A DNA stretch of 64,000 nucleotides, from assembly GCA_035512955.1 (NCBI GenBank), contig DATKCZ010000023.1:15698-79697 (forward strand), given 5' to 3'. Within the stretch, counting starts at the first letter, position 1. Each line of letters starts with the position of its first letter. Position numbers and translations under genes: made by a program. The notes beneath the pieces are model-generated. The model searched no databases, was not told the origin of the DNA, and was given only the letters and a program-made list of their open reading frames with translations. Positions 11,153 to 26,448 of this stretch are shown here, in pieces. This DNA is from Acidimicrobiia bacterium. GTDB lineage: Bacteria > Actinomycetota > Acidimicrobiia > Spongiisociales > ZC4RG35.

Positions 11153-14100
11153 CTAGAGGATGGCCCTGGGGCCGAGCAGCTCTTTCAACTCGGCGAAGAG
11201 GGCGGAGCGCGGCTCCACCTTGTGATCGTCGCCCAGACGTAGCACCTTGGTGTCTCCGTTGTCGGAGAGATTGAGGAAGACGGTGGCTTCACCCGGATGA
11301 TTCTTCAGGATCGCCTTGAGACTCGACACCACCTCCGGAGTGAGACGGGCCGCAGGCACCGCGAGTCTCACCATCGAGTCGTCTCGCACCACCAGCTCGG
11401 TGAGCTCCCGGGCCACCACCTTGACGTCGTCGCCCCGGTGGTCGAGGTTCCCCGAAACGACCAGGATGGCGTCCTCGACGACCAAGTGGCCATAGTCGTG
11501 GACCGTCTTGGGGAAGGCGATCACCTCGACCGAGCCCTGCAGATCCTCGAGCTGGAAGAACAGCATGGGATCGCCGTTCTTGGTCCAGCGCCGGGTGATG
11601 GTCCCCACGATGCCACCCACGGTCAACGATGACCGGTCGACCAGGTCCTCCAACTCGGAGATTGTGGTGGTGGTGTTCGCGGCCAGTGAGGCGCCCACCG
11701 ATAGGAGGGGATGGTCCGACACGTAGAGACCGAGCATCTCCTTCTCGAAGGCGAGCTTGATCTTCTGGGCCCACTCCTGGTCGGGTATCTCGAAGCTCTC
11801 CTCCTCGCCGACCGCGGCCTCACCGGCGAACAGCGAATACTGGCCCATCTCCTCGTTGCGCCGCCGTTCGAGGGTGGCATCGAGCACCAGGTCGTGCATC
11901 AGGGTCAGCCCCTTTCGGGTGTGCCCGAGGGCGTCGAAGGCCCCCGCCTTGATCAGAGACTCGACGGTCCTCTTGTTCAGGGCGGTGACATCGACCCGGT
12001 TGACGAAGTCGAGGAACGACTCGTAAAGGCTGTCGGCGCGCCCCTCGACGATCTTCTCCACCACTCCCTCCCCGACATTGCGCACCGCCGACAGCCCGAA
12101 CCTGATTCGACCCTCGCGGACGGTGAAGTCCGACTCCGACTCGTTGACATCGGGGACGAGCACTTCGATTCCCATCTGACGGCACTCGTTGAGATAGATC
12201 GCCGTTCGGTCCTTGTCCCGTTTGGTGGCAGTCAGCAGCGAGGCCAGGTACTCGGCGGGGTAATGGGCCTTCAAATATGCCGTCTGATAGGCGACCAGGC
12301 CGTAACCGGCGGCGTGACTGCGGTTGAAGCCGTAACCGGCGAAGTGACCGATCAGCCGGAACATCTCCCGACCGGTCTCCTCGCTGTGTCCCTGCTCCCG
12401 GCACCCGGCGACGAATTTCTCCTCCTCGGCCGCCATGACCGACTTGATCTTCTTGCCCATCGCCCGCCGCAGGTTGTCGGCGTCGGCCATCGAATAGCCG
12501 GCCAGCTCCTGGGCAACCATCATGACCTGTTCCTGGTACACCATGATCTGATAGGTGTCCTGGAGCTTCTCGGTGACCGCGGGGTGGAGCTCCTCCACCG
12601 AGGCGCGCCCGTTCTTTCGGTCGGCGTAGAGGTTGTGCATGTTGGCGCCCATCGGCCCCGGCCGGTACAGGGCCACCAGGGCGATCACGTCGTCGAAGCT
12701 GTCGGGGCGGAGAGAGCGAATCAGTGCCCGCATCGCTGACCCCTCCATCTGGAAGACCCCGATGGTGTTCCCCGATTGGAGGAGCTCGAAGGTCCTGACA
12801 TCGTCGAGAGGGATGTTGTCGATGTCGATGCGCTCCCCAACGGTCTGCTCGAGGAGCTCGAGACAACGCTCGATGATGGAGAGGTTGCGCAGGCCGAGGA
12901 AGTCCATCTTGAGCAAGCCGAGGTCCTCGACGCCATGCATCTCGAACTGGGTGACCGTCTCCGCGCCCTCTCCCTTGCGCTGGACCGGGACGATGTTGGT
13001 CAGCGGCTCGGGGGCGATGACCACCGCAGCGGCGTGGATCGAGTCCTGTCGTCGCAGCCCCTCGAGACCGCGGGCCACGTCGACCACTTCCTTGACTCCG
13101 GGGTCGGTCTCGTACATCTCACGGAGACCCTGGGCGTTGGCGTACCAGTCCTTGACCTCCGAGCTGGCCCCGGGCCCGGGTGGGGTGAGGACCTGGTCGA
13201 TGGTCGGGTCCTTGCCGAGGATCGAGGGGGGCATCGCCTTGGCCACCCGGTCCCCCACCGCATAGGGGTGCCCGAGGACCCGGGCGGAGTCGCGGACCGC
13301 CTGCTTTCCCTTGATCGTGGAGAACGTGATGATCTGCGCCACCCGATCATGCCCGTACTTCTCAGCCGCATAGCGGATCATCTCTCCCCGATAGCGCTCG
13401 TCGAAGTCCATGTCGATGTCGGGCATCGACTTGCGCCCCGGGTTGAGGAAGCGCTCGAAGATGAGCCCGTAGCGCAAGGGATCGATGCCGGTGATCCCCA
13501 ACACATAGGACACGATCGAACCGGCCGCCGACCCCCGACCGGGACCGACCCGTATCCCGTTATCCCGCGCGTGCCGGATCAGGTCCCAGACGATGAGGAA
13601 GTAGGCGGGGAACCCCATCTCCTCGATGATCTTCAACTCGTGCTCGACACGCTCCCACACCTCGCTGCCGGAGTCGCCCCCGTACCGATCGCGGGTGCCC
13701 TGCTCGACGAGCCTGCGCAGATAGGTCACCTCGGTCTCGCCGTCGGGGACCGGGAACTGGGGCAGCAGGATCCTGCCGAAGTCGAGGCCGATGTCCGCCC
13801 GCTCGGCGATCCAGAGGGTGTTGTCACACGCCCCGGGATATCGGTCCTCAGGGAACAACCGGCGCATCTGCTCGCCGGTCTTCAGGTAGTGCTCGGACCC
13901 CTCGAAGCGGAGCCGACCGGGCTCGTTGCGCAACGATCCGGTCTGGATGCAGAGCAGCGCGTCGTGGGCGTCGTGCTCGTCCTGACGGGTGTAGTGGGCA
14001 TCGTTGGTCGCCAGGAGTGGTGCGTCGATGCGCTTGGCCACCTCCAAGAGATCGGTCATGATCCGGTCCTGGGCGGCCAGGCCATGGTCCTGCACCTCGA

Positions 14101-14653
14101 CGAAGAAGTTGTCCCGCCCGAAAATGTCCTGGAAGCGGCCGGCTGCAGCCACCGCCGCCTCGAAGTCGCGGGTTGCGCCGCCCTTGTTGCCCTCCTCGGA
14201 GACCGCGTCCGGTCCCAGCATCTGGGGGACGAGACCGCCGAGACAACCGGAGGTGGCGATGATCCCCTCGGAATGGGTGGCCAATAGCTCCAAGTCCATC
14301 CGGGGCTTGTAGTAGTAGCCCTCGAGGAACGACTTCGACGAGAGCTGGAGCAGATTGCGGTACCCCACGTCGTTCTCGGCGAGCAGGACCATGTGATATC
14401 GCTTGTTCTGGTCGGAGGGGGGACGATCGAAACGCGACCCGTCGGTGAAGTAGGCCTCGATGCCGATGATCGGCTTGATGTCGTGTTGCTTGGCCGCCTT
14501 GACGAAGTCGACCACGCCGTAGAGGTTCCCATGGTCGGTGATCGCGATCGCCGGCTGACCCATGCCCGCCGCGGCGGCGACCACATCATCGATCCGGGCC
14601 GCACCGTCTAGCAGGGAGTATTCGGTGTGGAGATGGAGATGGGAGAAAGACAC
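11153..14653 (-). CDS. dnaE: DNA polymerase III alpha subunit
   Basis: 1166 aa. N-terminal PHP domain MSFSHLHLHTEYSLLDGAARI, polymerase core (GFDFLGLRNL and others) and an OB fold. Full length. Confidence 0.95.
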   Translation of the reverse strand: MSFSHLHLHTEYSLLDGAARIDDVVAAAAGMGQPAIAITDHGNLYGVVDFVKAAKQHDIKPIIGIEAYFTDGSRFDRPPSDQNKRYHMVLLAENDVGYRNLLQLSSKSFLEGYYYKPRMDLELLATHSEGIIATSGCLGGLVPQMLGPDAVSEEGNKGGATRDFEAAVAAAGRFQDIFGRDNFFVEVQDHGLAAQDRIMTDLLEVAKRIDAPLLATNDAHYTRQDEHDAHDALLCIQTGSLRNEPGRLRFEGSEHYLKTGEQMRRLFPEDRYPGACDNTLWIAERADIGLDFGRILLPQFPVPDGETEVTYLRRLVEQGTRDRYGGDSGSEVWERVEHELKIIEEMGFPAYFLIVWDLIRHARDNGIRVGPGRGSAAGSIVSYVLGITGIDPLRYGLIFERFLNPGRKSMPDIDMDFDERYRGEMIRYAAEKYGHDRVAQIITFSTIKGKQAVRDSARVLGHPYAVGDRVAKAMPPSILGKDPTIDQVLTPPGPGASSEVKDWYANAQGLREMYETDPGVKEVVDVARGLEGLRRQDSIHAAAVVIAPEPLTNIVPVQRKGEGAETVTQFEMHGVEDLGLLKMDFLGLRNLSIIERCLELLEQTVGERIDIDNIPLDDVRTFELLQSGNTIGVFQMEGSAMRALIRSLRPDSFDDVIALVALYRPGPMGANMHNLYADRKNGRASVEELHPAVTEKLQDTYQIMVYQEQVMMVAQELAGYSMADADNLRRAMGKKIKSVMAAEEEKFVAGCREQGHSEETGREMFRLIGHFAGYGFNRSHAAGYGLVAYQTAYLKAHYPAEYLASLLTATKRDKDRTAIYLNECRQMGIEVLVPDVNESESDFTVREGRIRFGLSAVRNVGEGVVEKIVEGRADSLYESFLDFVNRVDVTALNKRTVESLIKAGAFDALGHTRKGLTLMHDLVLDATLERRRNEEMGQYSLFAGEAAVGEEESFEIPDQEWAQKIKLAFEKEMLGLYVSDHPLLSVGASLAANTTTTISELEDLVDRSSLTVGGIVGTITRRWTKNGDPMLFFQLEDLQGSVEVIAFPKTVHDYGHLVVEDAILVVSGNLDHRGDDVKVVARELTELVVRDDSMVRLAVPAARLTPEVVSSLKAILKNHPGEATVFLNLSDNGDTKVLRLGDDHKVEPRSALFAELKELLGPRAIL

Positions 14654-14753
14654 GTTGGATGTGGCCGGGAGTTACAAGCTTGTAGTTCGTCGAATCTAGC
14701 ACCGACCCACCCGGCATGGGCCACCTCGCGAAAACCTGTCGTGACCGTGCGGC

Positions 14754-15566
14754 TCAGAGGACGAGGACCGCGGCCACCGCGACCCCGGCGACCGCCACCG
14801 CCACGGCAACCCTCGCGGTCTCGTTCCTGACCCGGGACCAGAGCTCGCCGATTACGAACCCGGCGATCAGACCACCGAGATGGGCCTCCCAGGCGATGTT
14901 GGGGATGATGAACGGGAGCGCTGCATTCAACAGGAGCAGGAATCCGATCTGACGCAGGAGCATCCGCCCATGGGCCGTGTTTCGACGACGCACCGCCCAG
15001 TTGAGCCAGATCCCGAACAGACCGAATATCGCCCCGGAGGCACCGACCGCCACGTCAGCCGGATCCCCCATCACATAGGCGAATGCACCACCGACACCGG
15101 CGGACGCCATGAAGACTGCGACGAAGGGCCAGGTGCCCACCCCCCGCTCGATCTGGGGGCCGAGCACCCACAGCGCCCACATGTTGAACAGGATGTGGGT
15201 TATCCCGGCGTGGAGGAGGACCGGAGTGAAAATGCGCCACCACTCCCCGTCCCCTACCAGGACGTTGTACTGGGCCAGGGCCTCGAACACCGGGCCACCC
15301 AACCCGCCGAGACCGGTGAGGACGAAGAAGGCGAGGGCGAGACCGATGAAGGTCATGGTGGCGGGGGTGCCGGTGCGTCGCGGCCCGGTGGGGATAACCT
15401 TCTGGGTGCCCTCGGAGCGGACACACTCAGGGCATCTCTGGCCGACCGTGGCGTCGATGGAGCAGGAGGCGCAGATGGGGCGTTCACAGCGGCTGCACCG
15501 CAGCAGGGTGTGACGGTCGGGGTGCCGGTAGCAGACAGGCGCCGCCGTGGTGTGGTCCTGAGTCAC
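14754..15566 (-). CDS. Rhomboid-family intramembrane serine protease with N-terminal zinc ribbon
   Basis: CYRHPDRHTLLRCSRCERPICASC...CPEC zinc ribbon. Rhomboid catalytic GASGAIFG (GxSG) and AHLGG (His) in TM helices. Confidence 0.8.
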   Translation of the reverse strand: MTQDHTTAAPVCYRHPDRHTLLRCSRCERPICASCSIDATVGQRCPECVRSEGTQKVIPTGPRRTGTPATMTFIGLALAFFVLTGLGGLGGPVFEALAQYNVLVGDGEWWRIFTPVLLHAGITHILFNMWALWVLGPQIERGVGTWPFVAVFMASAGVGGAFAYVMGDPADVAVGASGAIFGLFGIWLNWAVRRRNTAHGRMLLRQIGFLLLLNAALPFIIPNIAWEAHLGGLIAGFVIGELWSRVRNETARVAVAVAVAGVAVAAVLVL

Positions 15567-15600
15567 TTCTCTGAAAGTACTAGGTGCCAGGGGTTAGACA

Positions 15601-16500
15601 CTAGGACAGGGCCTCGAGAACGGCGGACAGGTCGTTGGGGAGCGGGGCCTCCACCTCGAGGCGGTTGCCCGTTGCCGGGTGGGTGAATTCGAGACGCGAT
15701 GCGTGCAAGAAGGTGCGCGGCGAACCGAGGTCCTTGCGGGTGGCCCCATAGGCCCGATCCCCGGCGACAGGGTGCTCGATCGCCGAAAGGTGGACCCTTA
15801 TCTGATGGGTGCGACCGGTCTCCAACTTGACCACGAGCAGCGAGACGTCCGAGGCTTCGAAGTAGCGCACCAACTCATAGTGGGTGCGGGCCGGCTTGCC
15901 CCCGTGTCTGACCGCCCGTCTGCTGGGCTGGGCCGGGTCGGGCCCGATTGGTGCCTCGATGGTCCCGGTGGGGGCCTCCATCGACCCCTCCACCAGTGCG
16001 GTATATATCCGGGTCATCTCACGACGGCGAAGCTGGCCGGTGAGGTCGGCGAAGGCCTGGGGGGTTCTCGCCACCAGGATCACGCCGGAGGTGTCCTTGT
16101 CGAGTCTGTGCACCAACCCCCAACGATCGACCGCTCCCACGCCGGCGAGGTCGGGGTAGCGGTGGAGCAGACCGGCGGCGAGGGTGCCCCCAGCCCCGCC
16201 ACCCCCGGGATGGACCACCACACCGGGCCGCTTGTCAACCACCACGATCTCGTCGTCCTCGAACAGGATGTCGAGTTCCATCTCCTCCGGAACCAGCCCC
16301 GCCGCCCTCTCGGGAATCTCACAGACAATGGTTTGCCCGCCACGGACACGATCGGAGGGCTTCGCCTCGATGTCGTCGAGCCGCACCCCGGAGGCGACCA
16401 CGAGCGATGCCCTGGCCCGGCTCAGACCGAGGAGCTCGGCAATTGCCTTGTCGACCCGGGCGCCGTCGAGTGCGGGCGGCACCTCGAGAGCTATCTGCTC
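15601..16500 (-). CDS. rluD: RluA-family 23S rRNA pseudouridine synthase (RluD-like)
   Basis: S4-like N-terminus, catalytic HRLDKDTSG motif, and THQIRVH. The track ORF extends about 175 aa upstream through lspA in another frame. Start set at GTG (rc 16498-16500), overlapping the lspA stop. Confidence 0.8.
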   Translation of the reverse strand, partial: EQIALEVPPALDGARVDKAIAELLGLSRARASLVVASGVRLDDIEAKPSDRVRGGQTIVCEIPERAAGLVPEEMELDILFEDDEIVVVDKRPGVVVHPGGGGAGGTLAAGLLHRYPDLAGVGAVDRWGLVHRLDKDTSGVILVARTPQAFADLTGQLRRREMTRIYTALVEGSMEAPTGTIEAPIGPDPAQPSRRAVRHGGKPARTHYELVRYFEASDVSLLVVKLETGRTHQIRVHLSAIEHPVAGDRAYGATRKDLGSPRTFLHASRLEFTHPATGNRLEVEAPLPNDLSAVLEALS

Positions 16501-16964
16501 CGCCACGCCTGTATGAGTAGCAGACCCACCGCGACGCTGATCGAGGCGTCGGCGAGGTTGAAGGTGGGGATGATCCACAGGTTGATCCAGTCGATCACCG
16601 CTCCGTCGAGCAGCCCCCCGCCCCGAGCGACACGATCGACCAGGTTGCCCAGCGCCCCGCCGAGGACCAAACCGAGGGCCACCACCTCCAACGTCGGCCG
16701 GGCCGCCACCAGTGACCCGATCACCACCAGGGTGACGACGAGTGCGGCCACCCCGATGACGGTGCCGCCGTCCTGAAAGAAGCCGAACGCCCCCCCAGAG
16801 TTCTCCACATAGGTGAACCCGAGGAACCCGGGGAGGATCTCGACCGGGCTGCCCTGGAAGGTGACCGAGGCGTATCTCTTGGTGAGGAGGTCGGCGGTGA
16901 CCACGCCGCCGGCGACGCCAACCCCGATCAGGTAGCGACGAATCAAGACGTCCGGGAGGCGCAC
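16491..16964 (-). CDS. lspA: Lipoprotein signal peptidase II
   Basis: 157 aa, 4 TM, with conserved NLVDR and FNLAD motifs. Confidence 0.85.
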   Translation of the reverse strand: MRLPDVLIRRYLIGVGVAGGVVTADLLTKRYASVTFQGSPVEILPGFLGFTYVENSGGAFGFFQDGGTVIGVAALVVTLVVIGSLVAARPTLEVVALGLVLGGALGNLVDRVARGGGLLDGAVIDWINLWIIPTFNLADASISVAVGLLLIQAWRSR

Positions 16965-17317
16965 TCGACACAGACGGTCGAGTATGGGAGGACGTCAAGT
17001 CGCTCCACGGGGATGGCCTTGCCACAGGACTCACAGATCCCGTAGGTCCCGGCTTCGATTTGCTCCAGGGCGCGGTTGACCTTGCTCAAGAGGTCGATCG
17101 AGTTCTGCTCGATAGAGAGCTCCTTGGCGTACTCCAGCTTCATCGAGCTCGCCTCGGCGTTACCCGGGTCCGGGCTGCGGTCCGAGGAGCTCTCGGTGAG
17201 ACGCGCCTCTTCGAGCTCGCGTTCGTAGTCCTCGATCTGCTCCTCGAGACGGGTCTTCTCCTCCTCGAGCCGCTTCCTGTAGCGCTGCAGGGTCGTCTTG
17301 GCGAGTTTTCTGGCCAC
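16943..17317 (-). CDS. DksA/TraR-family C4-type zinc-finger protein
   Basis: Coiled-coil N-terminus then CESCGKAIPVERLDVLPYSTVCVEC (C-x2-C-x17-C-x2-C). Confidence 0.75.
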   Translation of the reverse strand: MARKLAKTTLQRYRKRLEEEKTRLEEQIEDYERELEEARLTESSSDRSPDPGNAEASSMKLEYAKELSIEQNSIDLLSKVNRALEQIEAGTYGICESCGKAIPVERLDVLPYSTVCVECASRTS

Positions 17318-17361
17318 TCCAATACCTCATAAAAGGCGGGGAACCCTACCAACGACATTCC

Positions 17362-17657
17362 CTATATGCCGAGTTTCCGACGAACACCGTCGAGGTCCGC
17401 CCCGGTGACCTCAAACACCTTGGCCCGCCCCCGAATTCCCGTCTTCAAGCTGACTTTCGCCCCGACGACCTCACTCAGCAACCGCGATGGCCACCCCGGT
17501 CGGCCCGGCCACCTTCGGCGGGAGCCGCCACCCGGATCTTGAGGCGGTCTCCGTGGAGATCCTGGATCACGGTCCGGGAGGACCCGGGCACCACCCATAC
17601 CGCGATGGCCACCCCGGTCGATGTGACGCTGAGCGCGGGGTGAGACACGACCGCCAC
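17362..17657 (-). pseudogene. DUF167 (YggU-like) gene split across two frames (frameshift at an intragenic repeat)
   Basis: Frame A (17475-17657) reads MAVVSHPALSVTSTGVAIAVWVVPGSSRTVIQDLHGDRLKIRVAAPAEGGRAD, matching the YggU N-terminus (LHGDxLKVxxxAPPVDGxAN). Frame B (17362-17480) reads LLSEVVGAKVSLKTGIRGRAKVFEVTG, matching the YggU C-terminus. The break falls inside a 22-nt core that is duplicated 117 nt upstream. Confidence 0.5.
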
Positions 17658-17713
17658 GCTAACCCGAGGCGGGGACCGACTTGGCGGTCCACGTCGTTAC
17701 CCTGCCCGTCTCT

Positions 17714-20700
17714 ATGACCTCAGCAGAGCAGACCGAATTCTTCACCCCGGTCGAACCCCGGCCCGATCACGACGGGCTGGAACGCCGCATCCTCGAGTGG
17801 TGGGAGGAACGCTCCGTCTTCGCCCGGCTCCGCGAGAAGAATGCTGGGGGCGAGCCGTTCAGCTTCATCGACGGGCCGGTCACGGCCAACAAGACCCTCG
17901 GCATCCACACCGCATGGGGGCGCACCCTCAAGGATGTGATCCAGCGTTACAAGGCAGCACTTGGCCATGACCTGCGCTACCAGAACGGCTGGGATTGCCA
18001 GGGTCTCTGGATCGAGGTGGGAGTGGAGAAAGAGCTCGGCCTCAACTCGAAGAAAGAGATCGAGGCGTTCGGGCTGGAGGAGTTCGCCCGGAGATGTCGG
18101 GAAAAGGTTGCCTGGTCGGTGGAGGAGCTGCGTCGTGGCTCACGGCGGCTGGGGATGTGGATGGACTGGGACAACGACTACCTCACCTTCTCCGACAACA
18201 ACATCGAGTACATATGGAGGTTCCTCAAGATCCTCGATGACCGTCACTGGCTGTACCTGGGACATCGCTCCACCGAATGGTGCCCCCGGTGCGGCACCTC
18301 GATCTCCCAACACGAGCTCACCCAGTCGGGTGTGTACCAGGAGAAGGCCGACCCGTCGCTGTCGGTGCGGCTTCCGCTGATCGATCGCCCAGGTGAGGGT
18401 CTGGTCATCTGGACCACGACGCCATGGACCCTGCCGGCCAACGTGTCAGCCGCCGTCCATCCCGACTATCGATACGGGAGGAGGCCGAACGGCGATTGGG
18501 TGGCCATCGAGCGCTTCCCCGACGACGAGTTCGAGGAGACCAAGCCGGGGAGCGAGCTCGTCGGTTGGGCCTACCACGCGCCATTCGAGGATCTCGAAGC
18601 CGGGGCGGGAGTCGAGCACCGGGTCATCCCGTGGGACGAGGTCACCCTCGACCAGGGAACAGGGGTGGTCCACATCGCCCCGGGAGCCGGCTCGGAGGAT
18701 TTCGAGCTGGCCGGGGCCCACGACCTCCCCGTGCTGACCCCGGTCGACGGGGCAGGCCGGTTCTACCCCGACTATGGGTGGCTCGCCGGAATGTCCACCG
18801 AGGAGGCTCGCCAGCCGATCATCGACGCCCTGGAGAACAAGGGCATCCTCGTCGAGTCCGGGGAGTACGTGCACTCCTACCCGCATTGCTGGCGGTGCGA
18901 CACCCCGCTCATCTTCCGGGTGGCCGACGACTGGTACATCTCGGTCGACGAGATCAGGCAACCGCTCAGGGACGCCAACGCCTCGGTGGCCTGGACTCCG
19001 GCATACATGGGCAAGCTCATGGACGACTGGCTCAACAACATGGGCGACTGGAACATCTCCCGTCGTCGCTACTACGGGCTCCCTCTGCCCATCTACATCT
19101 GCGACTGTGGAGAGGTCACGGTGATCGGCTCGAAGACGGAGCTGGCGGCGAGGGCCACTGCGGGCATGGAACAGCTCGAGGAGCTGCGTCGTCCCTGGAT
19201 CGATCGGGTCACCATCAGGTGCGAACAGTGTGGCGACGAGAGCGTGACCCGGGTCGAAGAGGTCGGTGACGTGTGGCTCGACGCCGGGATCGTCCCTTTC
19301 TCGACCCTCGGCTGGCAGAACCCCGAGTGGGTCCCCGGTGGCAATGCCACGGGGGCGGCTCGTGGACTGACGGGTGCCGACCTGCCCGACCACGCCTATT
19401 GGGAGAAGTGGTTCCCCGCCCACTGGGTCAGCGAGATGCGAGAGCAGGTGCGGCTCTGGTTCTACTCCCAGCTCTTCATGTCGGTTGCACTGGTCGGGGA
19501 GGCGCCGTTCCGCACCGTGCTCGGATACGAGAAGATGCTGGCCGAGGATCGCCGGGAGATGCACGGGTCATGGGGCAACCTGATCGGCGCCGAGGAGGCC
19601 TTCGAGCGCATGGGGGCCGACGTGATGCGGTGGATGTACTGCGCCCACCCCCCGGACCGCAATCTCCTCTTTGGCTATGAGGGGGCCTACGAGGTCCGGC
19701 GACGCCTGCTGACACTGTGGAACTCGGCGCGGTTTCTCATCGACTACGGCAACATCGAGGGCTTCGTCCCCAACTACGACGACCTCGACGGCGGTCCCGA
19801 TGACCTCGAGCTGACCACCACGGACCGCTGGCTCCTCGCCCGAGTCGGCCAGGTGGTGTCCGAGGCGCAGGCCAGTCTCGACAGGCTCCGCACCGACGAT
19901 CTGGTGACCGCATTCGAGAAGTATCTGGACGATCTGTCCAACTGGTACATCCGTCGCAGCCGTCGCCGCTTCTACCACTACGACGAGGCCGCCTTCAGGA
20001 CCCTCTGGGTGGGGGTGGTCACTTCCTTGCGGGTGATCGCCCCGGTGATGCCCTTCCTCACCGAGCATCTCTGGACGGTGCTGGTCTCGGGACCCTGCGA
20101 CGATGCTCCCGAGTCGGTGCATCTCGCCGGTTGGCCGTCACCGCCCGCTGAGGTCGACGATCGCCTCCTGGCGGAGATCGCCGCGGTGCGACGGGTCGTC
20201 GAAGCGGGGCGCAGGGCGCGTATGGAGGCGAACATCAAGCTCCGCCAGCCGCTGCGTGGTGTCATCGTGCGCGGAGCCGACCTCGCCGCGGCCCACGCCT
20301 CCGAGATTCGCGAAGAGCTGCGAGTCAAGGAGATCAGCTTCGACGAGGACACCACCGTCGAGGTCACCGTCAAGCCCAACTTCCCCGTCGCCGGCCCACG
20401 GCTGGGGCCGAAGATCAAAGAGGTGTCTGCTGCTCTGGCCCGAGGAGAATTCGAGGACCTCGATGACGGTGGGGTCTTCGCCGCCGGTGAGACCCTGAGC
20501 GCGGATGAGGTGCAACGGACCGAGAGAGTCGTCCTCGACGGCTGGGTGGTGGCTCACGATGGCAACGTAAGCGTCGCCATCGACCCGATCCTGGACGACG
20601 ATTTGCTTCTCGAGGGCCGGGCTCTGGAGTTGATCCGGAGGCTCAACGAGCAACGCAAACAGGAGGGGTTGGCCCTCACCAACCGTATCCGGCTGAGGCT

Positions 20701-20830
20701 GCCCGCCGGCGATGCCGATCTGGTGGAGAGCCATGGCGAGTGGATCGCGGCAGAGGTCCTGGCGACGTCGATCGAGGTCGACGAGAGTCTGGACATCCCG
20801 TCACTGAGCGTCGACCCCCACCACTCCTAG
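17714..20830 (+). CDS. ileS: Isoleucyl-tRNA synthetase homolog (type 2, eukaryote/actinobacterial-like) with degenerate class-I catalytic motifs
   Basis: Collinear from memory with M. tuberculosis IleS over full length: FIDGPVTAN..KDVIQRY, GWDCQGLWIE, WTTTPWTLPAN editing motif, GTGVVHIAPGAG, YPHCWRCDTPLIF, GADVMRW. HYGH is replaced by GIHT (17900-17911). KMSKS is replaced by EMHGS (19556-19570). The His of WDTHGLP is replaced by Q. Start is ATG 17714 (MTSAEQ) or TTG 17681. Confidence 0.85.
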   Translation: MTSAEQTEFFTPVEPRPDHDGLERRILEWWEERSVFARLREKNAGGEPFSFIDGPVTANKTLGIHTAWGRTLKDVIQRYKAALGHDLRYQNGWDCQGLWIEVGVEKELGLNSKKEIEAFGLEEFARRCREKVAWSVEELRRGSRRLGMWMDWDNDYLTFSDNNIEYIWRFLKILDDRHWLYLGHRSTEWCPRCGTSISQHELTQSGVYQEKADPSLSVRLPLIDRPGEGLVIWTTTPWTLPANVSAAVHPDYRYGRRPNGDWVAIERFPDDEFEETKPGSELVGWAYHAPFEDLEAGAGVEHRVIPWDEVTLDQGTGVVHIAPGAGSEDFELAGAHDLPVLTPVDGAGRFYPDYGWLAGMSTEEARQPIIDALENKGILVESGEYVHSYPHCWRCDTPLIFRVADDWYISVDEIRQPLRDANASVAWTPAYMGKLMDDWLNNMGDWNISRRRYYGLPLPIYICDCGEVTVIGSKTELAARATAGMEQLEELRRPWIDRVTIRCEQCGDESVTRVEEVGDVWLDAGIVPFSTLGWQNPEWVPGGNATGAARGLTGADLPDHAYWEKWFPAHWVSEMREQVRLWFYSQLFMSVALVGEAPFRTVLGYEKMLAEDRREMHGSWGNLIGAEEAFERMGADVMRWMYCAHPPDRNLLFGYEGAYEVRRRLLTLWNSARFLIDYGNIEGFVPNYDDLDGGPDDLELTTTDRWLLARVGQVVSEAQASLDRLRTDDLVTAFEKYLDDLSNWYIRRSRRRFYHYDEAAFRTLWVGVVTSLRVIAPVMPFLTEHLWTVLVSGPCDDAPESVHLAGWPSPPAEVDDRLLAEIAAVRRVVEAGRRARMEANIKLRQPLRGVIVRGADLAAAHASEIREELRVKEISFDEDTTVEVTVKPNFPVAGPRLGPKIKEVSAALARGEFEDLDDGGVFAAGETLSADEVQRTERVVLDGWVVAHDGNVSVAIDPILDDDLLLEGRALELIRRLNEQRKQEGLALTNRIRLRLPAGDADLVESHGEWIAAEVLATSIEVDESLDIPSLSVDPHHS

Positions 20831-22173
20831 GGCGGTCGCCCCACCCGGTATCGGTGGCCAAGCGGGCTGATCCATTCCAACTCGGTGCGGTTGATCTTGC
20901 GATATCGCCACCCTCCGCGGTGTTTGGCCATGTGGTGTCGCCGACATAGCGGCGCCTGGTTGCGCACCGTGGTAGGACCGCCCGCGGCGTGGTCGTCGAT
21001 GTGATCGATGTCGGAATCGGTGGCCGGCATGCGGCAACCCGGCCAGGAGCAAGTCGGCATCAAGGCCCGGATCTTGCGGAGTTGCTTGGCGGTGGGGCGA
21101 CGTCGCACCGAGACCACATGCAGGGGCTCTCCGGTCTCGTCGTCGGTGACCACCGCGGTCCACTCGCCATCCTCCTGCTGGCGCGCCACCTTGCGGGCGA
21201 CTTCGGCGATGACCGGGCCGTAGCCGCCCAAGTCTCCGGGCATCTGGTCGAGCTCGGCCAAGGCGGACATCGATGCCGTCATGGTCACCGCACCTCCGGG
21301 ACCTTTGCCCGAGCCACTCAACTCGCCTTGGAGCAAGGCGAGGGCGATGTCGGCTCTGATTTGGTCGATGTTTCGGGGGTCATCGTCGCTCTGGAGCCTC
21401 TTGGCGAGACGGTTGACATGGTCACGGGCCGCCAGGACGTCTTCGGGAGATGCCTGGGAGATGATGAAGGCGGCGGTGCCTTCGGCGTTCTCCTCGGCGA
21501 CTACTTTCCGTTCGGTGAGTGATCGCTCGTACCGCGACATCGCGTCGGCCGGGTCGGCCTCGACACAGAGTTTGCGCAGCCGGGCCCGTATCTGACCCGT
21601 GGTCAGGCTCGGAGCCTCCGGGAGGATGACGTCGACCACCTCGTTGGCCGTCTGGCTGTCGAGGTGGGCAGTGTCACGGGACAGGATGCGGGCCTTGCGG
21701 GCATCGAGATCACCGGATCTCATCGCCCGGGCCACCTGGGGCAGCCGACTGTCCAAGTCGAAGGCGACGCCCAGCTCGTCGTTGGACATTCGCCGGGTGA
21801 GGGTCAGGGCCGCCCCGATCTCCTCAGGGGCAAAGTCCTCGATGACAGGAGACCGCTCCGTCGTGTCGGCGGCGACGCAGTGAGCAGTCTCGACCATGGC
21901 GGCATAGAGGCCGGCTTGATCGTGGGAGATGAGCCGCTGTTGCGCCCGCATCAAGGTCACCACGTCATCGCCCGAAAGCCGTGACAGGTCGAGAGAGGAC
22001 AGGATCGCGGCCAGGTACGGGCCGGGCTCCATCTCGTCCAGGTCTTCGGGGATCGACTGGCGATCCTCGATCGTCTCGGTCGAGGCGGCAAGGGTCAGTT
22101 GGTAGACAGTCTCCTCAGTCTCCTCACTCTCCGCCGGGTAGGGCTCGGACCTGAGGTCTTCATCGACGAACAT
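20827..22173 (-). CDS. DUF222 + HNH endonuclease domain protein (REP13E12-like)
   Basis: 448 aa. C-terminal HNH with CSWPGCRMPATDSDIDHIDDHAAGGPTTVRNQAPLCRRHHMAKH. Large N-terminal DUF222-like region. This gene type is commonly mobile or repeat-associated in actinobacteria. Confidence 0.8.
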   Translation of the reverse strand: MFVDEDLRSEPYPAESEETEETVYQLTLAASTETIEDRQSIPEDLDEMEPGPYLAAILSSLDLSRLSGDDVVTLMRAQQRLISHDQAGLYAAMVETAHCVAADTTERSPVIEDFAPEEIGAALTLTRRMSNDELGVAFDLDSRLPQVARAMRSGDLDARKARILSRDTAHLDSQTANEVVDVILPEAPSLTTGQIRARLRKLCVEADPADAMSRYERSLTERKVVAEENAEGTAAFIISQASPEDVLAARDHVNRLAKRLQSDDDPRNIDQIRADIALALLQGELSGSGKGPGGAVTMTASMSALAELDQMPGDLGGYGPVIAEVARKVARQQEDGEWTAVVTDDETGEPLHVVSVRRRPTAKQLRKIRALMPTCSWPGCRMPATDSDIDHIDDHAAGGPTTVRNQAPLCRRHHMAKHRGGWRYRKINRTELEWISPLGHRYRVGRPP

Positions 22174-22378
22174 ATGTTCGAATCGTACCGGAGGTCTCCG
22201 ACAGATTTCAAGAGGTTTGCCGATTCCGATGGAAATATCCCGAGCGGCCCCTACTCGTCTATGAAGGAGCCGTTAGTTGCCATGATGAAATTGGTCGAAA
22301 GCGGCGAGAACGCCCGCTAGAACCCTTAGTCGACGGCCACCATCACCCACAGATCGCCCGGTTGGCCCGTCTCGATCC

Positions 22379-23155
22379 CTACTCGCCCTCGCCCTCGCCC
22401 TCGTCCGAGTCGGTGTCATCGTCGGAGACGAGTTGGAGGTCGCTGGCCACCCCGGTCAACATGGCGTCCAGGCCCTGATCGTTCGACACCTCCTTCTCGG
22501 AGCCCTCCTCGGCGGCATCGTCCCCGCCCCCATCCTCGGTGCCGTCGGATTCGTATTGGTCGTCCCCATCGCCTGCGGGTGAGTCGTCGAATGGGTCCGG
22601 CGAGTCCATGTCGTCCCTTGCCTCGTGGTCCCCGTGTGCGGCCACCCCGGAGTCGTCGATCACCTCATCCATGTCGTCGAGCTTCTCCGACACCTCATCG
22701 GCCAGGACGGAGATCTCGGTGCGGACCGAGGCGACGCGCGCCGCGATCGCCGCGATCTCCGCCTCGGCCTCCATCTTCTTCGCATCGCGCTCCGCTTGAA
22801 AGGAGTCGGCCTCGTCCTTGGCGCCGTCGAGGAGCTCGGCCGCCTCCGCTTGGGCGTCCTCCAGCAGCTTGTCGGCCGCGTTCTGCGCCGCGATGAGCGC
22901 CCGGCCGACCGCACTCTCGTCGATCTCGGCTCGTGGCTCCGGCATCGGCTCTCTCGCTGGCACCGCCTCCGGCTCCGCGGGAGCTGCCGGCTGCAGGGTG
23001 ATTGGCGGGGCAGTCGCCCTGGCTTCATCGAGCTGTTCGCTCAGTTCCCTGATCGTGGTCACGATCTCGTCGAGGAAGTCGTCGACCTCATCCAGGTCGT
23101 AGCCGCGTAGCGCGGTGGAGAAGGTCTTCTGTTCGACGTCTGACACAGTGAGCAT
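22379..23155 (-). CDS. divIVA: Cell-division/polar-growth protein DivIVA
   Basis: MLTVSDVEQKTFSTALRGYDLDEVDDFLDEIVTTIREL is the canonical DivIVA N-terminus. Coiled-coil middle and a long acidic low-complexity C-tail ending in EGEGEGE. Start reassigned to ATG rc 23153-23155. Confidence 0.85.
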   Translation of the reverse strand: MLTVSDVEQKTFSTALRGYDLDEVDDFLDEIVTTIRELSEQLDEARATAPPITLQPAAPAEPEAVPAREPMPEPRAEIDESAVGRALIAAQNAADKLLEDAQAEAAELLDGAKDEADSFQAERDAKKMEAEAEIAAIAARVASVRTEISVLADEVSEKLDDMDEVIDDSGVAAHGDHEARDDMDSPDPFDDSPAGDGDDQYESDGTEDGGGDDAAEEGSEKEVSNDQGLDAMLTGVASDLQLVSDDDTDSDEGEGEGE

Positions 23156-23215
23156 TTGTTCACACCTCTCGAGTTCGCCGGGCAGGATAAGAAAAGGATG
23201 GCAGTGCCACAAGGA

Positions 23216-23470
23216 TCAGCCGATGATGCCCATCAGTATCCGGATGCCGATGAGAAGGATAATCGGGGAGAGGTCGAGTGCCCCGCCACCAATCCTGATC
23301 GGAGGCACCACCCGACGAATGGGAAGGATCACAGGGTAGATGATCCGGTCGAGAAACACCTGCACCCTGCCCAGGGGGTGTGTCGACGACACCCTGATCC
23401 AGGAGAGGATCACCCAGGCAAACACCGCGTAGAAGTAAATGGTGAGGAGGGTCAGAAGGAGGTCGCGCAC
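23216..23470 (-). CDS. yggT: YggT family membrane protein
   Basis: 84 aa, 2 TM, typical YggT/Ycf19 size and position between sepF and divIVA. Confidence 0.75.
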   Translation of the reverse strand: MRDLLLTLLTIYFYAVFAWVILSWIRVSSTHPLGRVQVFLDRIIYPVILPIRRVVPPIRIGGGALDLSPIILLIGIRILMGIIG

Positions 23471-23472
23471 CG

Positions 23473-24036
23473 TCAGTCGATATCGTCGAGCTCGTAGGCT
23501 CCGAGTGTCGACAGTCGCCGTCTCTCATCGCGACTGAGGGTCACCCGGGGGGGTAGGACGAGAACGAGCCCGTCGCCGACACGGCGCATCGAGCCGTCGA
23601 GGGCGTAGATCAACCCGGAGCAGAAATCGACGACCCGGCGCACCAGGTCGGGATCCGCCTCTCTCATGTCGAGGACCACCGGCACCCGGTCCCTCACCCG
23701 ATCGGCGAGCACCCGGGCATCGGCGAACTCTTCGACCACCAAGATGTCCGACTGGATCTCGATGGGTCGGACCATCGGCGATGCGGCCGGTGGCTCCACA
23801 CGACGACTCGAGTCGGAGAGACTTGGCGGCTCAACGCGTCGCTGGGCACGGGTGGCGGCACGTGCGGTCGGGGGTGGCTCCACGCGTCGTCCCTCCAGCG
23901 TCTCGACTGTGCGAGGTTGGGTCATGGGGTCGGGCTGATTGTTCTTGTGGTTGGCCATGTCGGCGGCCTCAGCCTCGAGCTGGTCCTCGTCTACCAGCCC
24001 CAGGTAGACGAGAGCTTTCGAGAACAGTGAAGACAT
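23473..24036 (-). CDS. sepF: Cell division protein SepF
   Basis: N-terminus MSSLFSKALVYLGLVDED (membrane-binding amphipathic helix). C-terminal SepF core (VLVVEEFADARVLADRVRDRVPVVLDMREAD). The linker carries three RRVEPP repeats. Confidence 0.85.
   Translation of the reverse strand: MSSLFSKALVYLGLVDEDQLEAEAADMANHKNNQPDPMTQPRTVETLEGRRVEPPPTARAATRAQRRVEPPSLSDSSRRVEPPAASPMVRPIEIQSDILVVEEFADARVLADRVRDRVPVVLDMREADPDLVRRVVDFCSGLIYALDGSMRRVGDGLVLVLPPRVTLSRDERRRLSTLGAYELDDID
23795..23905 (-). repeat. Intragenic tandem repeat in the sepF linker (3x, about 39-45 nt unit, encoding RRVEPP)
   Basis: Forward strand shows ggctccacacgacgactcgag / ggcggctcaacgcgtcgctgggc / ggtggctccacgcgtcgtccctcc. The protein shows GRRVEPPPTARAATRAQRRVEPPSLSDSSRRVEPPAASP. 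Confidence 0.4.
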
Positions 24037-24048
24037 TCACGCTCCGAT

Positions 24049-24702
24049 TTACTTGCGTGGTCCAAAGATAGCCCGTCCCACTCGTATGATCGAAGCACCT
24101 TCGGCGATCGCCACCTCGAAGTCGTCGGTCATCCCCATGGACAGCTCGACCACTCCGGGATGGTCAGCATTCACCTCATCCCGGATCCGGCGCAGGGTCT
24201 CGAAGTAGGGCCGGCTGTCTTCGGGGTCATCCGGAATCGGCGGTAAGGCCATGAGGCCCCGAACATCGAGCCCGAGGCTCACCATCCACTCGAGAGCCGC
24301 CGGCACCTCGTCGGGAGCCACACCCGACTTCTGGCCCTCCTCTCCCAGGTTGACCTGGGCCAGCACCGGAGGTGCCGGGCCCTGGCCCTTCATCCAGGCG
24401 GATCCCAACGTAAGGCGGTCCATGGAGTGGAGGAGATGGACCACCGGGCGCACCAGTCGCGCCTTGTTGGACTGGAGCACTCCCACGTAGTGCCAGCGGA
24501 TGTCTCGGGGCAGCTCGGCGGCCTTGTCGGCGAGCTCGTCGGCCCGGTTCTCCCCGAAGTCGCGATGCCCCTGTTCGTAGACCTCCATGATCTCGGGGCG
24601 CCCCATGGTCTTCGAGACGGCGACCACCGTGATCTGCTCCGGGGCGCGGCCCGAGCTTCCCGCAGCCTTTGCCACCCGCTCCATGACAGCCTGGTAGCTC
24701 AC
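24049..24702 (-). CDS. yggS: YggS-family pyridoxal-phosphate homeostasis protein (PLPBP)
   Basis: ITVVAVSKT (PLP lysine), FGENRADE, LQSNKA and SMGMTDDFEVAIAEGASIIRVGRAIFG all match YggS. Start set at GTG about 24702, overlapping the pgeF stop. The track N-terminus is an artifact. Confidence 0.8.
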   Translation of the reverse strand: MSYQAVMERVAKAAGSSGRAPEQITVVAVSKTMGRPEIMEVYEQGHRDFGENRADELADKAAELPRDIRWHYVGVLQSNKARLVRPVVHLLHSMDRLTLGSAWMKGQGPAPPVLAQVNLGEEGQKSGVAPDEVPAALEWMVSLGLDVRGLMALPPIPDDPEDSRPYFETLRRIRDEVNADHPGVVELSMGMTDDFEVAIAEGASIIRVGRAIFGPRK

Positions 24703-25322
24703 GACAACCACCCGACCGCAGCCTGACGCTGCATGGTCCCGTCGACCCGGTGGCTGAACCAGCCTCGGTCGTGATGGGTGCAGGCGCCGCTCTCCCATGT
24801 GTCCAAGCCGTGGAGCTCGGCGGAGAGCGACGCAGGCAGGTCCACCGAGGTGCTGCCCCAGGTGGTAGAGGAGATGTGATCGTCGAATCTCTCGGCGACT
24901 TCCATCCCCACCTCGAAACAACACGGTGCGATCCCCGGTCCCACTGCTGCCCGCCTCGGCGGATGGCCACTCGCCGTCATCTCTTGGCGCAGTCGGCTCA
25001 CCACACCTGAGGCGGCGCCACGCCACCCGGCGTGGGCGACACCCACTGCGTCATCGGCGGTGAGGACCACTCCGAAACAGTCTGCAGTGAACACTGCGAC
25101 GGGAAGGTCAGGCTCGGTGGTCCACAACGCGTCGGCTTCTCCGGCGACGCCGGGGGCCCCGACTCGTGTCACCTCGTTGCCGTGGACCTGGTCGACCACG
25201 GCCCAATCCCGGGGAACCCCGAGTCGCCGGGAAAGCCCGGACCGGGCCGCCGGGTCGTTGCGGATGTCTCCGTCCGCGGCCTCGCTGAATGCCACCCCGT
25301 CCCAGCCGGGGGGTCGGATCAT
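24699..25322 (-). CDS. pgeF: Peptidoglycan editing factor PgeF (YfiH/DUF152, laccase-domain protein)
   Basis: Conserved [10 protein letters not shown] and HAGWRG motifs. Canonical position after ftsZ. Confidence 0.8.
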
Positions 25323-26350
25323 CCCTGGACGAAACTGGGGATGTCGAGGATGTCCTCGCCCTGCTCCTCGGCGGCACGCGAGAAGGGTCGGGTGGGGCGC
25401 CGACGCCCCTCGAACCCGGCTGCGATCACGGTGACCTTCATCTCCTCGCCGAGATCGTCGTCGATGATGGCGCCAAAGATGATGTCGCCTTCACCGTCGG
25501 CGTGGTCGGCCACCACCCGGGCTGCCTCGGTGGCTTCGTGCAGCGTCATCGACGTGGGGCCGGAGACGCTGAGTAAGACGCCCTTGGCCCCGTCCATCGA
25601 GGCCTCCAGCATCGGTGATGAGATGGCCCGCTCGGCGGCCTGGCGGGCTCGATTCTCGCCGGTGGCGCGACCGATCCCCATCACAGCCGATCCGGCGTCG
25701 GTCATGATCGTGCGCACGTCGGCGAAGTCGACATTGATCAGCCCAGGTGTGGTGATGAGGTCGGTGATGCCGGTGACCCCGCTCATCAGCACTTCGTCGG
25801 CCAGTCTGAAGGTGTCGGCCATCGGAGCCTCGGGATCGCCCACATCGAGGAGCCGGTCGTTGGGGATGACGATGAGGGTGTCGACCGCATCCTTGAGGGC
25901 GTCGATGCCCTGCTCGGCGTGCACCGCCCGGCGACGACCCTCGAACCCGAAAGGTCGGGTCACCACGCCGACGGTGAGTGCCCCCACCGAACGGGCGACC
26001 TCGGCGACCACCGGCGCACCCCCCGTGCCGGTTCCTCCTCCTTCGCCGGCGGTGATGAAGATCATGTCCGATCCCTTGAGCACGTCTTCGAGCTCGGCAC
26101 GATGCTCCTCGGCGGCGGCCCGACCGATCTCGGGGTTGGCACCGGCACCGAGACCCCGGGTGACCTCGCGGCCAATGTCCAGCTTGACATCGGCATCACT
26201 CATCAGAAGGGCTTGGGCGTCGGTGTTGAGGGCGATGAACTCCACTCCACGGACCCCGGCGTCGACCATGCGGTTCACCGCGTTGACCCCGCCGCCACCG
26301 ATCCCCACCACCTTGATCACGGCCAGATAACCGCCACTTCCATTGCTCAC
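25319..26350 (-). CDS. ftsZ: Cell division GTPase FtsZ
   Basis: [21 protein letters not shown], the tubulin signature GGGTGTG, NTDAQAL and a C-terminal conserved peptide DILDIPSFV. Start proposed at GTG (rc 26348-26350), preceded by GGAGG 6 nt upstream. The track start 26425 adds an atypical N-extension. Confidence 0.93.
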
Positions 26351-26448
26351 CTGATCCTCCGAACTCGTGTTCACAAAACTTTGAAGTAGAGGTTTACCGT
26401 TAGACATCTGCAAAGTAAACCCCATAGCCCTCAGCCTCTACTAGAGGT

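Follow-up and report, generated by a model that had tools for sequence, protein, structure and literature searches.

Can an isoleucyl-tRNA synthetase (IleRS) that has lost both lysines of its KMSKS loop, and whose HIGH motif holds a single histidine, still charge its tRNA? The question is raised by a gene in a 64,000-nucleotide stretch of an Acidimicrobiia metagenome-assembled genome (MAG; contig DATKCZ010000023.1, positions 15,698 to 79,697), here called the window and used as the coordinate frame throughout. The gene, ileS, lies at positions 17714–20830 on the forward strand, as do all of the motifs and domains described within it, and encodes a type-2 IleRS (IleRS2) of a derived form marked by A-N-K, G-x-H-T and E-M-H-G-S. 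HIGH and KMSKS are the motifs by which class I synthetases are defined, and a key part in the transition state is ascribed to the second KMSKS lysine. The reading that we favor, with a probability of about two in three judging from sequence comparison, is that the gene encodes an active, editing-competent housekeeping IleRS in which the catalytic lysine has been relocated.

The open reading frame (ORF) runs from an ATG at 17714 to a stop codon at 20830 and specifies 1038 amino acids, two fewer than the 1040 given in an earlier note on this DNA; an alternative in-frame TTG start at 17681 would yield a protein of 1049 residues. The product has the architecture of an IleRS, with a Rossmann fold split by a CP1 editing domain and followed by anticodon-binding and C-terminal tRNA-binding domains. 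Pfam matches are to tRNA-synt_1 (PF00133), to Anticodon_1 (PF08264, E = 5.7e-28; the anticodon-binding helical domain, residues 704–849, positions 19823–20260) and to DUF5915 (PF19302, E = 3.3e-26; the C-terminal tRNA-binding domain of the IleRS2 type, residues 865–1027, positions 20306–20794), the last of which aligns with the C-terminal domain of 8c8v/8c8w. These two structures, of Priestia megaterium IleRS2, are the closest solved relatives (E ~1e-166), and the profile alignment to them is collinear from end to end, bearing out the earlier description of a full-length type-2 enzyme. The NCBIfam model TIGR00392 (ileS) scores the protein at 623.9 bits, past its curated equivalog cut-off of 621.4, and the MupA and MupB exception models give 472.5 and 464.8 bits against a cut-off of 1900, such that the protein is not a member of these families. 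The AlphaFold2 (AF2) model has a mean predicted local distance difference test (pLDDT) score of 78 and its top match in the Protein Data Bank is 8c8w (TM 0.75); the overall fold as modeled is that of an IleRS2.

Profile alignment to 8c8w fills the HIGH, WDxHG, DQxRGWF and KMSKS columns gap-free with residues of the window protein (GPVTANKTLGIHTAWGR under GPPTANGLPGVHHALGR, and SEMREQVRLWFYS under AEGIDQTRGWFYS), and neither HxGH nor KMSKS occurs anywhere else in the protein; displacement of the catalytic motifs to another part of the chain is ruled out by this gap-free alignment. The HxGH columns contain G63-I64-H65-T66 (17900–17911), with their only His at position 3. Three residues before this motif is Lys60 (17891–17893; A-N-K-T-L-G63), a HIGH-loop lysine that is invariant in the homologue alignment (A2). 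The WDTHGLP motif is replaced by N-G-W-D94-C-Q96-G-L-W (residues 91–99, 17984–18010; NGWDCQGLW aligned with AGWDTHGLP in 8c8w), in which the Asp is kept and D94, Q96, G97 and W99 are invariant among the homologues. In place of EGxDQTRGWF is E574-M-R-E577-Q578-V-R-L-W582-F (19433–19462), retaining the Glu, Gln and Trp but with Glu for Asp; E574, M575, Q578, R580 and W582 are invariant over the wider branch, and lysine-retaining relatives have the same form. The KMSKS loop reads R614-E615-M616-H617-G618-S619 (19553–19570; RREMHGSWGN aligned with GQKMSKSKGN), with EMHGS at residues 615–619 (19556–19570) and neither of the lysines, including the catalytic second one. The earlier note had placed GIHT, WDCQGLW and EMHGS in these signature columns and had concluded that both KMSKS lysines are absent; the alignment confirms this, and the nucleotide coordinates that the note gave for the HIGH and KMSKS motifs are exact.

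The residues surrounding the substrates are retained. G54-P55, D94, W521, E574, Q578 and W582 match their 8c8w equivalents and are invariant among the homologues; from complexes of T. thermophilus IleRS we take these to be isoleucine-pocket and ribose-binding residues, with D94 as the Asp that contacts the amino group of isoleucine. The isoleucine-pocket Trp, W521, is part of G-D-V520-W521-L-D-A-G (19265–19288), which aligns with DVWFDSG of 8c8w and in which W521 is invariant and V520 is one of few changes specific to the derived clade (A to V, fixed between the derived and sister groups). The editing site is present at residues 233–243 and 315–329, with WTTTPWT, GTGxVH and a downstream Asp. 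The Thr-rich CP1 peptide WTTTPWTLPAN (residues 233–243, 18410–18442) is 80% invariant across the clade, and the second editing-site motif, GTGVVHIAPGAG (18656–18691), is followed by S-E-D329, with G315, G317, V319, H320 and D329 all invariant. These two peptides, together with YPHCWRCDTPLIF and GADVMRW, had been listed as intact and all four are found.

The altered motifs are not peculiar to one assembly. A homologue search over 5.8 billion proteins listed 120 close homologues at 66–100% identity, mostly from Acidimicrobiia MAGs in NCBI, ENA, JGI and Logan. Within this list EMHGS is present in 113/113 readable KMSKS loops, and 115/115 readable HIGH motifs read G/A/V/P-x-H-T preceded by ANK; position 1 is G, alternatively A and rarely V or P, and position 3 is invariably His. 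A scan of GTDB with one genome per species shows that at least 600 species carry this IleRS branch, and the best 80 loci, from Acidimicrobiia, Thermoleophilia/Gaiellales, a Euzebyaceae MAG and other Actinomycetota, have the same motifs. Altogether ~180 homologues (57–100% identity; Acidimicrobiia, Thermoleophilia and other Actinomycetota) keep G/A-x-H-T with x-M-H-(G/S/A)-S. A sequencing, assembly or frameshift artefact might be suspected from the origin of the window in a MAG and from a local frameshift patch in the adjacent yggU-like gene, but identical residues recur in more than 180 sequences across NCBI, ENA, JGI and Logan assemblies, and the uninterrupted frame in the window follows solved IleRS2 from end to end. 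Because the motifs are conserved across independent samples, such an error is excluded for practical purposes.

Several of the substitutions have precedents. The structure 8c8w is itself an engineered 'GVHH' mutant (Brkic et al. 2023, Nat Commun 14:5498, PMC10485003), and G/AXHH occurs naturally instead of HXGH in approximately half of IleRS2, with the position-3 His replacing the first His (PMC10485003). G/AXHH enzymes are fully active (D. radiodurans IleRS2 has a kcat of 45 s-1), and the swap leads to mupirocin hyper-resistance with a Ki up to 1000-fold higher, in the mM range, the tail of mupirocin sitting between the HIGH and KMSKS loops (PMC10485003). The first HIGH histidine, which the earlier note considered lost, has thus moved to position 3 as in this published active motif. 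The window IleRS shares with the G/AXHH enzymes (e.g. those of D. radiodurans and S. griseus, and 8c8w) the type-2 architecture with a DUF5915 C-terminal domain, the Gly/Ala at position 1 (G63) and the His at position 3 (H65); 8c8w is its top match in both sequence and fold, and on the favored reading both put an altered class I signature to housekeeping use. It differs in having Thr for the fourth His, a lysine-free EMHGS and a HIGH-loop Lys, in its changed WDTHGLP and DQTRGWF motifs, and in belonging to a different branch, ~30–35% identical to the characterized enzymes.

Comparison with a library of IleRS representatives at 50% identity places the other changes. Thr does replace the fourth HIGH His, but this has a precedent in the HxGT of archaeal-type IleRS (representatives P0169, P0204, P0220, P0224, P0234 and related sequences), several of which also have x-M-H-K-S. 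The first KMSKS lysine is likewise absent from the window protein as claimed, although archaeal-type enzymes show the same loss, with His for Ser in the loop; unlike the window IleRS, they retain the first His, the position-3 Gly and the second KMSKS Lys. Gln for His in WDxHG is real as well, but many IleRS whose HxGH (HVGH among them) and KMSKS are canonical have it too, and the Trp that ends NGWDCQGLW is likewise present throughout the branch and in some canonical IleRS. The branch to which the window IleRS belongs shares GP(I/V)TANN-x-GVHH-AWGR, NGFDCQGLW, EMREQ(V/I)RLWFYS, and x-M-H-K-S or F-S-K-T, and its named members come from Gemmatimonadota, Bacillota and Magnetococcales MAGs. Since they are common to the whole branch, the His to Gln change, EQVRLWF and the missing first KMSKS lysine are old features. 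The window protein is 25–33% identical to the Mycobacterium and Streptomyces types and sits in this distinct IleRS2 branch, of which Gemmatimonadota and other groups also have members, and an origin as a diverged ancestral copy of the mycobacterial or streptomycete type, as previously proposed, is rejected. Among the sequences compared, two features are unprecedented: a KMSKS loop without its second lysine, and the pairing of that loss with a one-His HIGH motif. The searchable literature yielded no description of the EMHGS, GVHT or MHKS motifs, of Acidimicrobiia IleRS, or of lysine relocation.

Loss of the second KMSKS lysine is paired with a basic residue in the HIGH loop. When the residue three positions before the HIGH motif (the x of ANx) is tabulated against KMSKS position 4 in 226 sequences of the branch, the covariation is strict: 182 combine a basic residue in the HIGH loop with a non-basic one at KMSKS position 4, 43 show N, A, G or Q in the HIGH loop with K or R at KMSKS position 4, none is basic at both sites, and one is basic at neither. 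The 182 derived pairings are either K at -3 with G, or R at -4 (with a 1-residue insertion) with S or A. The one sequence that is basic at neither site (L072:7001-10078; related loci are designated by L numbers) falls in the lysine-retaining sister group and has HEMHGS, GVHH, a 2-residue HIGH-loop insertion (ANTVDGLGVHH) and a Lys at GPKTAN; on sequence grounds it may be an independent and different charge relocation, and with it there are at least three distinct pairings. The Arg form, ANRxxLGVHT with EMH(S/A)S, is seen in a Thermoleophilia subgroup (L009, L015–L017, L022–L024, L027, L032–L034, L038, L040, L065 and L066), and its members are scattered among ANK sequences in a neighbor-joining tree. 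Three loci (L051, L052 and L081) are intermediates with ANK, GVHH and EMHGS, which shows that the lysine exchange is separable from the His to Thr change.

In the same tree the immediate sister of the derived clade is a lysine-retaining group with ANN, GVHH and REMH[K/R]S (Gaiellaceae/Actinomycetota), ~60% identical. Nine positions are fixed differently between the two (56, 60, 66, 100, 142, 432, 454, 520 and 618), and six of these lie in or beside active-site motifs. Thr66 is present in 179/179 derived sequences where the sister group has His, and residue 618, which is K or R in sister and outgroup sequences, is G, S or A in derived members. The window IleRS is 57–62% identical to its actinobacterial sisters and 41–49% to outgroups (Gemmatimonadota and others); the lysine-retaining enzymes share NGFDCQGLW and EMREQ(V/I)RLWFYS with it and occupy the same locus in Thermoleophilia, but keep the second KMSKS Lys/Arg and the fourth His, and have a HIGH-loop Asn where the window protein has Lys. 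The Thermoleophilia-type context is RidA ... cNMP-binding - ileS - lytB - GAF/PAS kinase, and the lytB neighbor is common to 43 such loci that include derived, intermediate and lysine-retaining forms of ileS. The derived genes are thus positional orthologs of lysine-retaining ones, and the shared lytB context of all three forms indicates that the motifs changed at this locus within an orthologous gene, with no sign of a duplication.

The derived clade joins Acidimicrobiia with Thermoleophilia, and its sisters also include sequences labeled Gaiellaceae, a distribution that reflects either transfer between classes or mislabeled or contaminated bins. MAGs labeled Propionibacteriaceae, Streptosporangiaceae and Melainabacteria (L006, L042 and L077) also carry the variant. 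In two further MAG assemblies (L074:6962-10062 and L076:6986-10055) ileS is split by frameshifts, which are probably long-read indel errors and not signs of pseudogenes.

A class I synthetase lacking the KMSKS lysine and having a conserved Lys three residues before HIGH is known from arginyl-tRNA synthetase (ArgRS), as in the KMSK-less enzymes of yeast (K156) and T. thermophilus. The yeast enzyme (1bs2) reads SSPNIAK156PFH159AGH, with Lys156 three residues before the motif and at the same offset as in K60-T-L-G63. ArgRS needs tRNA for activation. Many ArgRS are without KMSK (PMC3956977), and the HIGH-loop lysine is attributed to Sekine et al. (2001, JBC 276:3723) in PMC8975779. In ArgRS the loop lysine and a canonical KMSK are mutually exclusive, and the same pattern is seen in the IleRS branch (182:43:0:1). 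However, ArgRS is a different family (class Ia/Id), such that the resemblance is one of mechanism without homology of the change, and the role of the loop lysine, which is demonstrated for ArgRS, would apply to the window IleRS by analogy.

A plausible sequence of events begins with an ancestral branch in which the ATP site was already remodeled, with His at position 3 of the HIGH motif, x-M-H-K-S, and DQTRGWF changed to EQVRLWF. In the Acidimicrobiia/Thermoleophilia sub-clade the remaining KMSKS lysine would then have been lost (K to G, S or A) and a Lys or Arg gained in the HIGH loop 3–4 residues before the motif (ANN to ANK), the fourth HIGH His probably changing to Thr soon after this exchange. 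By the ArgRS analogy and the identical offset, Lys60 is proposed to substitute for the second KMSKS lysine: it would supply that charge from the HIGH loop and stabilize the ATP phosphates or pyrophosphate in the adenylation transition state, and His65 would assume the role of the first HIGH histidine, as in the G/AXHH enzymes.

The pattern of constraint bears on whether the synthetic site is in use. The ratio of nonsynonymous to synonymous substitution (dN/dS) for the window ileS is 0.18 against a 98%-identical homologue, 0.13 at 81% amino acid identity and 0.11 at 71%, and the catalytic core is under the strongest purifying selection, with dN at its lowest, 0.086 and 0.084, in the Rossmann halves compared with 0.14–0.18 in the editing, anticodon-binding and C-terminal domains. 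Columns with the same residue in all of 39 sequences (66–100% identity) account for 50% and 44% of the Rossmann halves, against 29% in CP1, 22% in the anticodon-binding domain and 10% in the C-terminal one; 77% of the HIGH loop and all of EMHGSWGN are invariant. The Rossmann halves are therefore the slowest-evolving part of the protein and its active-site motifs are invariant, the opposite of what is expected of a pseudo-enzyme kept for editing or tRNA binding, and this disfavors such a role. The alternative in question is a non-aminoacylating paralog engaged in trans-editing of Val-tRNAIle, in tRNA binding or in other chemistry at the nucleotide site, with a separate enzyme charging tRNAIle. 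It would account for the absence of both KMSKS lysines, the one remaining HIGH His, the intact editing motifs and tRNA-binding domains, the borderline TIGR00392 score, and the coexistence of variant and canonical IleRS at three loci (L041, L049 and L086, below), but not for a synthetic-site core more constrained than the editing domain or for the invariant isoleucine- and ribose-binding residues. The replaced motifs are frozen and not decaying; the lysine loss is matched exactly by a basic gain in the HIGH loop, which is hard to explain if phosphate chemistry had been abandoned; the gene is a positional ortholog of lysine-retaining enzymes with no visible duplication; and the literature searched contains no dead full-length IleRS. 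We consider a non-aminoacylating role quite improbable. The earlier note had offered as alternatives a non-catalytic or trans-editing paralog and an unprecedented active-site solution, and it is the second that the conserved Rossmann halves, invariant motifs and positional orthology favor.

An active enzyme could nonetheless be an auxiliary one, kept beside a canonical and faster IleRS because its remodeled site mainly excludes natural IleRS inhibitors, whether mupirocin-like or Ile-AMP mimics. Inhibitor-insensitive copies of this kind include ileS2, mupA and mupM in Bacillus, Staphylococcus and Pseudomonas. Canonical and variant genes lie in tandem in a Micromonosporales-like lineage, as seen in three independent assemblies (L041:748-7262, L049:3590-10129 and L086:1202-7513), with an ANK/GVHT/EMHGS variant 30–66 nt downstream of a canonical ileS (GTHH, WDCHGLP, DQTRGWF, KMSKH). 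The canonical copy is 72–74% identical to the IleRS of Micromonospora, Rhizomonospora and Pilimelia and so is the resident enzyme, whereas the variant groups with Acidimicrobiales sequences in the tree and so was acquired horizontally; the variant is the better conserved of the two (85% vs 75%, and 95% vs 92%). These loci resemble the second-copy resistant enzymes (mupA, mupB and Bacillus ileS2), which are also IleRS2-type and coexist with a resident ileS. An auxiliary role also gains from the published effect of the G/AXHH swap on mupirocin binding between the HIGH and KMSKS loops (PMC10485003), and from a gene tree that crosses class boundaries and suggests transfer. In contrast, MupA/MupB-type proteins have a canonical KMSKS, and the window gene sits in a housekeeping position, the conserved dcw-ileS-lspA-dnaE slot of Acidimicrobiia, as well as being a positional ortholog of lysine-retaining genes in Thermoleophilia. 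A second IleRS was sought in the 64-kb window, which has none, and in flanks (10 kb at most) of related loci, where none lies at 83 of the 85 screened, and no member of the variant clade occurs among 72,556 plasmids (PLSDB), where the closest match reaches 36% identity. A single ileS is the usual arrangement in bacteria (10.1101/2022.02.09.479832). An auxiliary, inhibitor-insensitive copy is unlikely here, although it is the main rival to the favored reading. A search with the canonical partner at L049 returned Micromonosporaceae, Pseudonocardiaceae and similar sequences with no Acidimicrobiia among the best 120, and is uninformative about Acidimicrobiia.

The interpretation as an active housekeeping IleRS with a relocated lysine has several points to contend with. 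The margin over the TIGR00392 cut-off is just 2.5 bits. The 226 sequences of the covariation table share ancestry, and the counts may represent perhaps 2–4 events in all. Many major-clade IleRS2 have a K or R one residue later in the HIGH loop (ANG[KR]PG) together with an intact KMSKS, so that a basic residue there is by itself no sign of compensation. The AF2 model has pLDDT below 50 at residues 54–63, 91–98 and 617–623 (the HIGH, WD and KMSKS loops, where its confidence is lowest) and lends no support to any geometry of Lys60. The tandem loci demonstrate that the variant can coexist with a canonical enzyme, and a canonical ileS is possible elsewhere in the genome beyond the 64-kb window. Finally, we know of no class Ia synthetase shown to work without the second KMSKS lysine.

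The genomic surroundings correspond to the classical ileS position, as the earlier note had recognized, and for Acidimicrobiia this is borne out (dcw-ileS-lspA-dnaE). The order dnaE-rhomboid-rluD-lspA-traR-(yggU), divergent from ileS, with (HNH) divIVA ... ftsZ converging on it from the other side, is confirmed in the window. The first flank, positions 11153–17317, is transcribed leftwards and contains dnaE (11153–14653), a rhomboid gene (14754–15566), rluD (15601–~16530), lspA (16491–16964) and a traR/dksA-type zinc finger gene (16943–17317); dnaE, rhomboid and rluD are assigned by Pfam, and lspA and traR by ORF coordinates and Pfam-labeled equivalents in related loci. The dnaE-to-traR order is also found in L001, L083, L084, L085, L002, L004, L035, L037 and L055, and in L013 and L057 the same genes are downstream of ileS in the opposite orientation. 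On the other side, also leftwards-transcribed and assigned by Pfam (20827–26425), are a DUF222 and HNH endonuclease gene (20827–22173), divIVA (22379–23212) and the dcw cluster up to ftsZ (25319–26425). The HNH gene is situated between ileS and divIVA on the reverse strand and overlaps the ileS stop by 4 nt. It is absent from the ileS-divIVA junction in L001, L083 and L085 and shorter in L084, and its absence or shortening in an otherwise conserved dcw-ileS junction suggests a mobile insertion; homologues at 69–82% identity, one of them on a 2.3-Mb contig, have the dcw-ileS-dnaE order without it.

Directly upstream of ileS is a divergent yggU/DUF167-like gene (17362–17657, reverse strand) that is frameshifted in the window and intact (PF02594) in L084 and L085. 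A patch within it at 17482–17502 consists of the 21-nt CCGCGATGGCCACCCCGGTCG, an exact copy of 17600–17620 that replaces a 19-nt stretch of the 98%-identical L084 (+2 nt). Either the patch arose by local gene conversion, which would have left a pseudogene, or it is an artefact of assembly. The yggU-like gene leaves ~25–55 nt upstream of ileS. No T-box or other Rfam element matches at gathering thresholds over the whole window, and the region 17000–17800 contains chance-level matches alone (E >=1). One of these, a Guanidine-II riboswitch-like match at 17549–17587 on the forward strand (16.1 bits against a gathering threshold of 32; E = 1.2), falls within the yggU-like remnant and is most likely due to chance. 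An RNA leader preceding ileS has no Rfam support, and the upstream space is taken by the yggU-like gene; this possibility was discarded.

A broader proposal, to which we would give slightly less than even odds, is that an Actinomycetota radiation comprising Acidimicrobiia, much of Thermoleophilia and some Nitriliruptoria-type MAGs has as its sole IleRS an enzyme with no KMSKS lysine, a single HIGH His and its lysine moved to the HIGH loop. This would be a convergence with ArgRS not described for class Ia, and the enzyme would be intrinsically inhibitor-insensitive, explaining its capture as a tandem ileS by Micromonosporales-like actinomycetes. The archaeal-type HxGT and MHKS forms already indicate that the textbook IleRS motifs are less universal than is usually stated. 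There are also consequences for annotation, as proteins of this type barely clear the TIGR00392 cut-off. TIGR00392 is among the single-copy markers used for genome taxonomy.

The finding in 2023 of a swapped HIGH motif in IleRS2 was unexpected and explained mupirocin hyper-resistance (PMC10485003). If the window IleRS is active as proposed, then the series ANN/GVHH/MHKS to ANK/GVHH/MHGS to ANK/GVHT/MHGS would illustrate the extent to which the active site of an essential enzyme can be remodeled stepwise, with living intermediates, and would provide a natural 'mutant' set for mechanistic work on IleRS. The variant may also be linked to resistance against natural IleRS inhibitors, and could represent an additional level of intrinsic resistance to antibiotics directed at IleRS.

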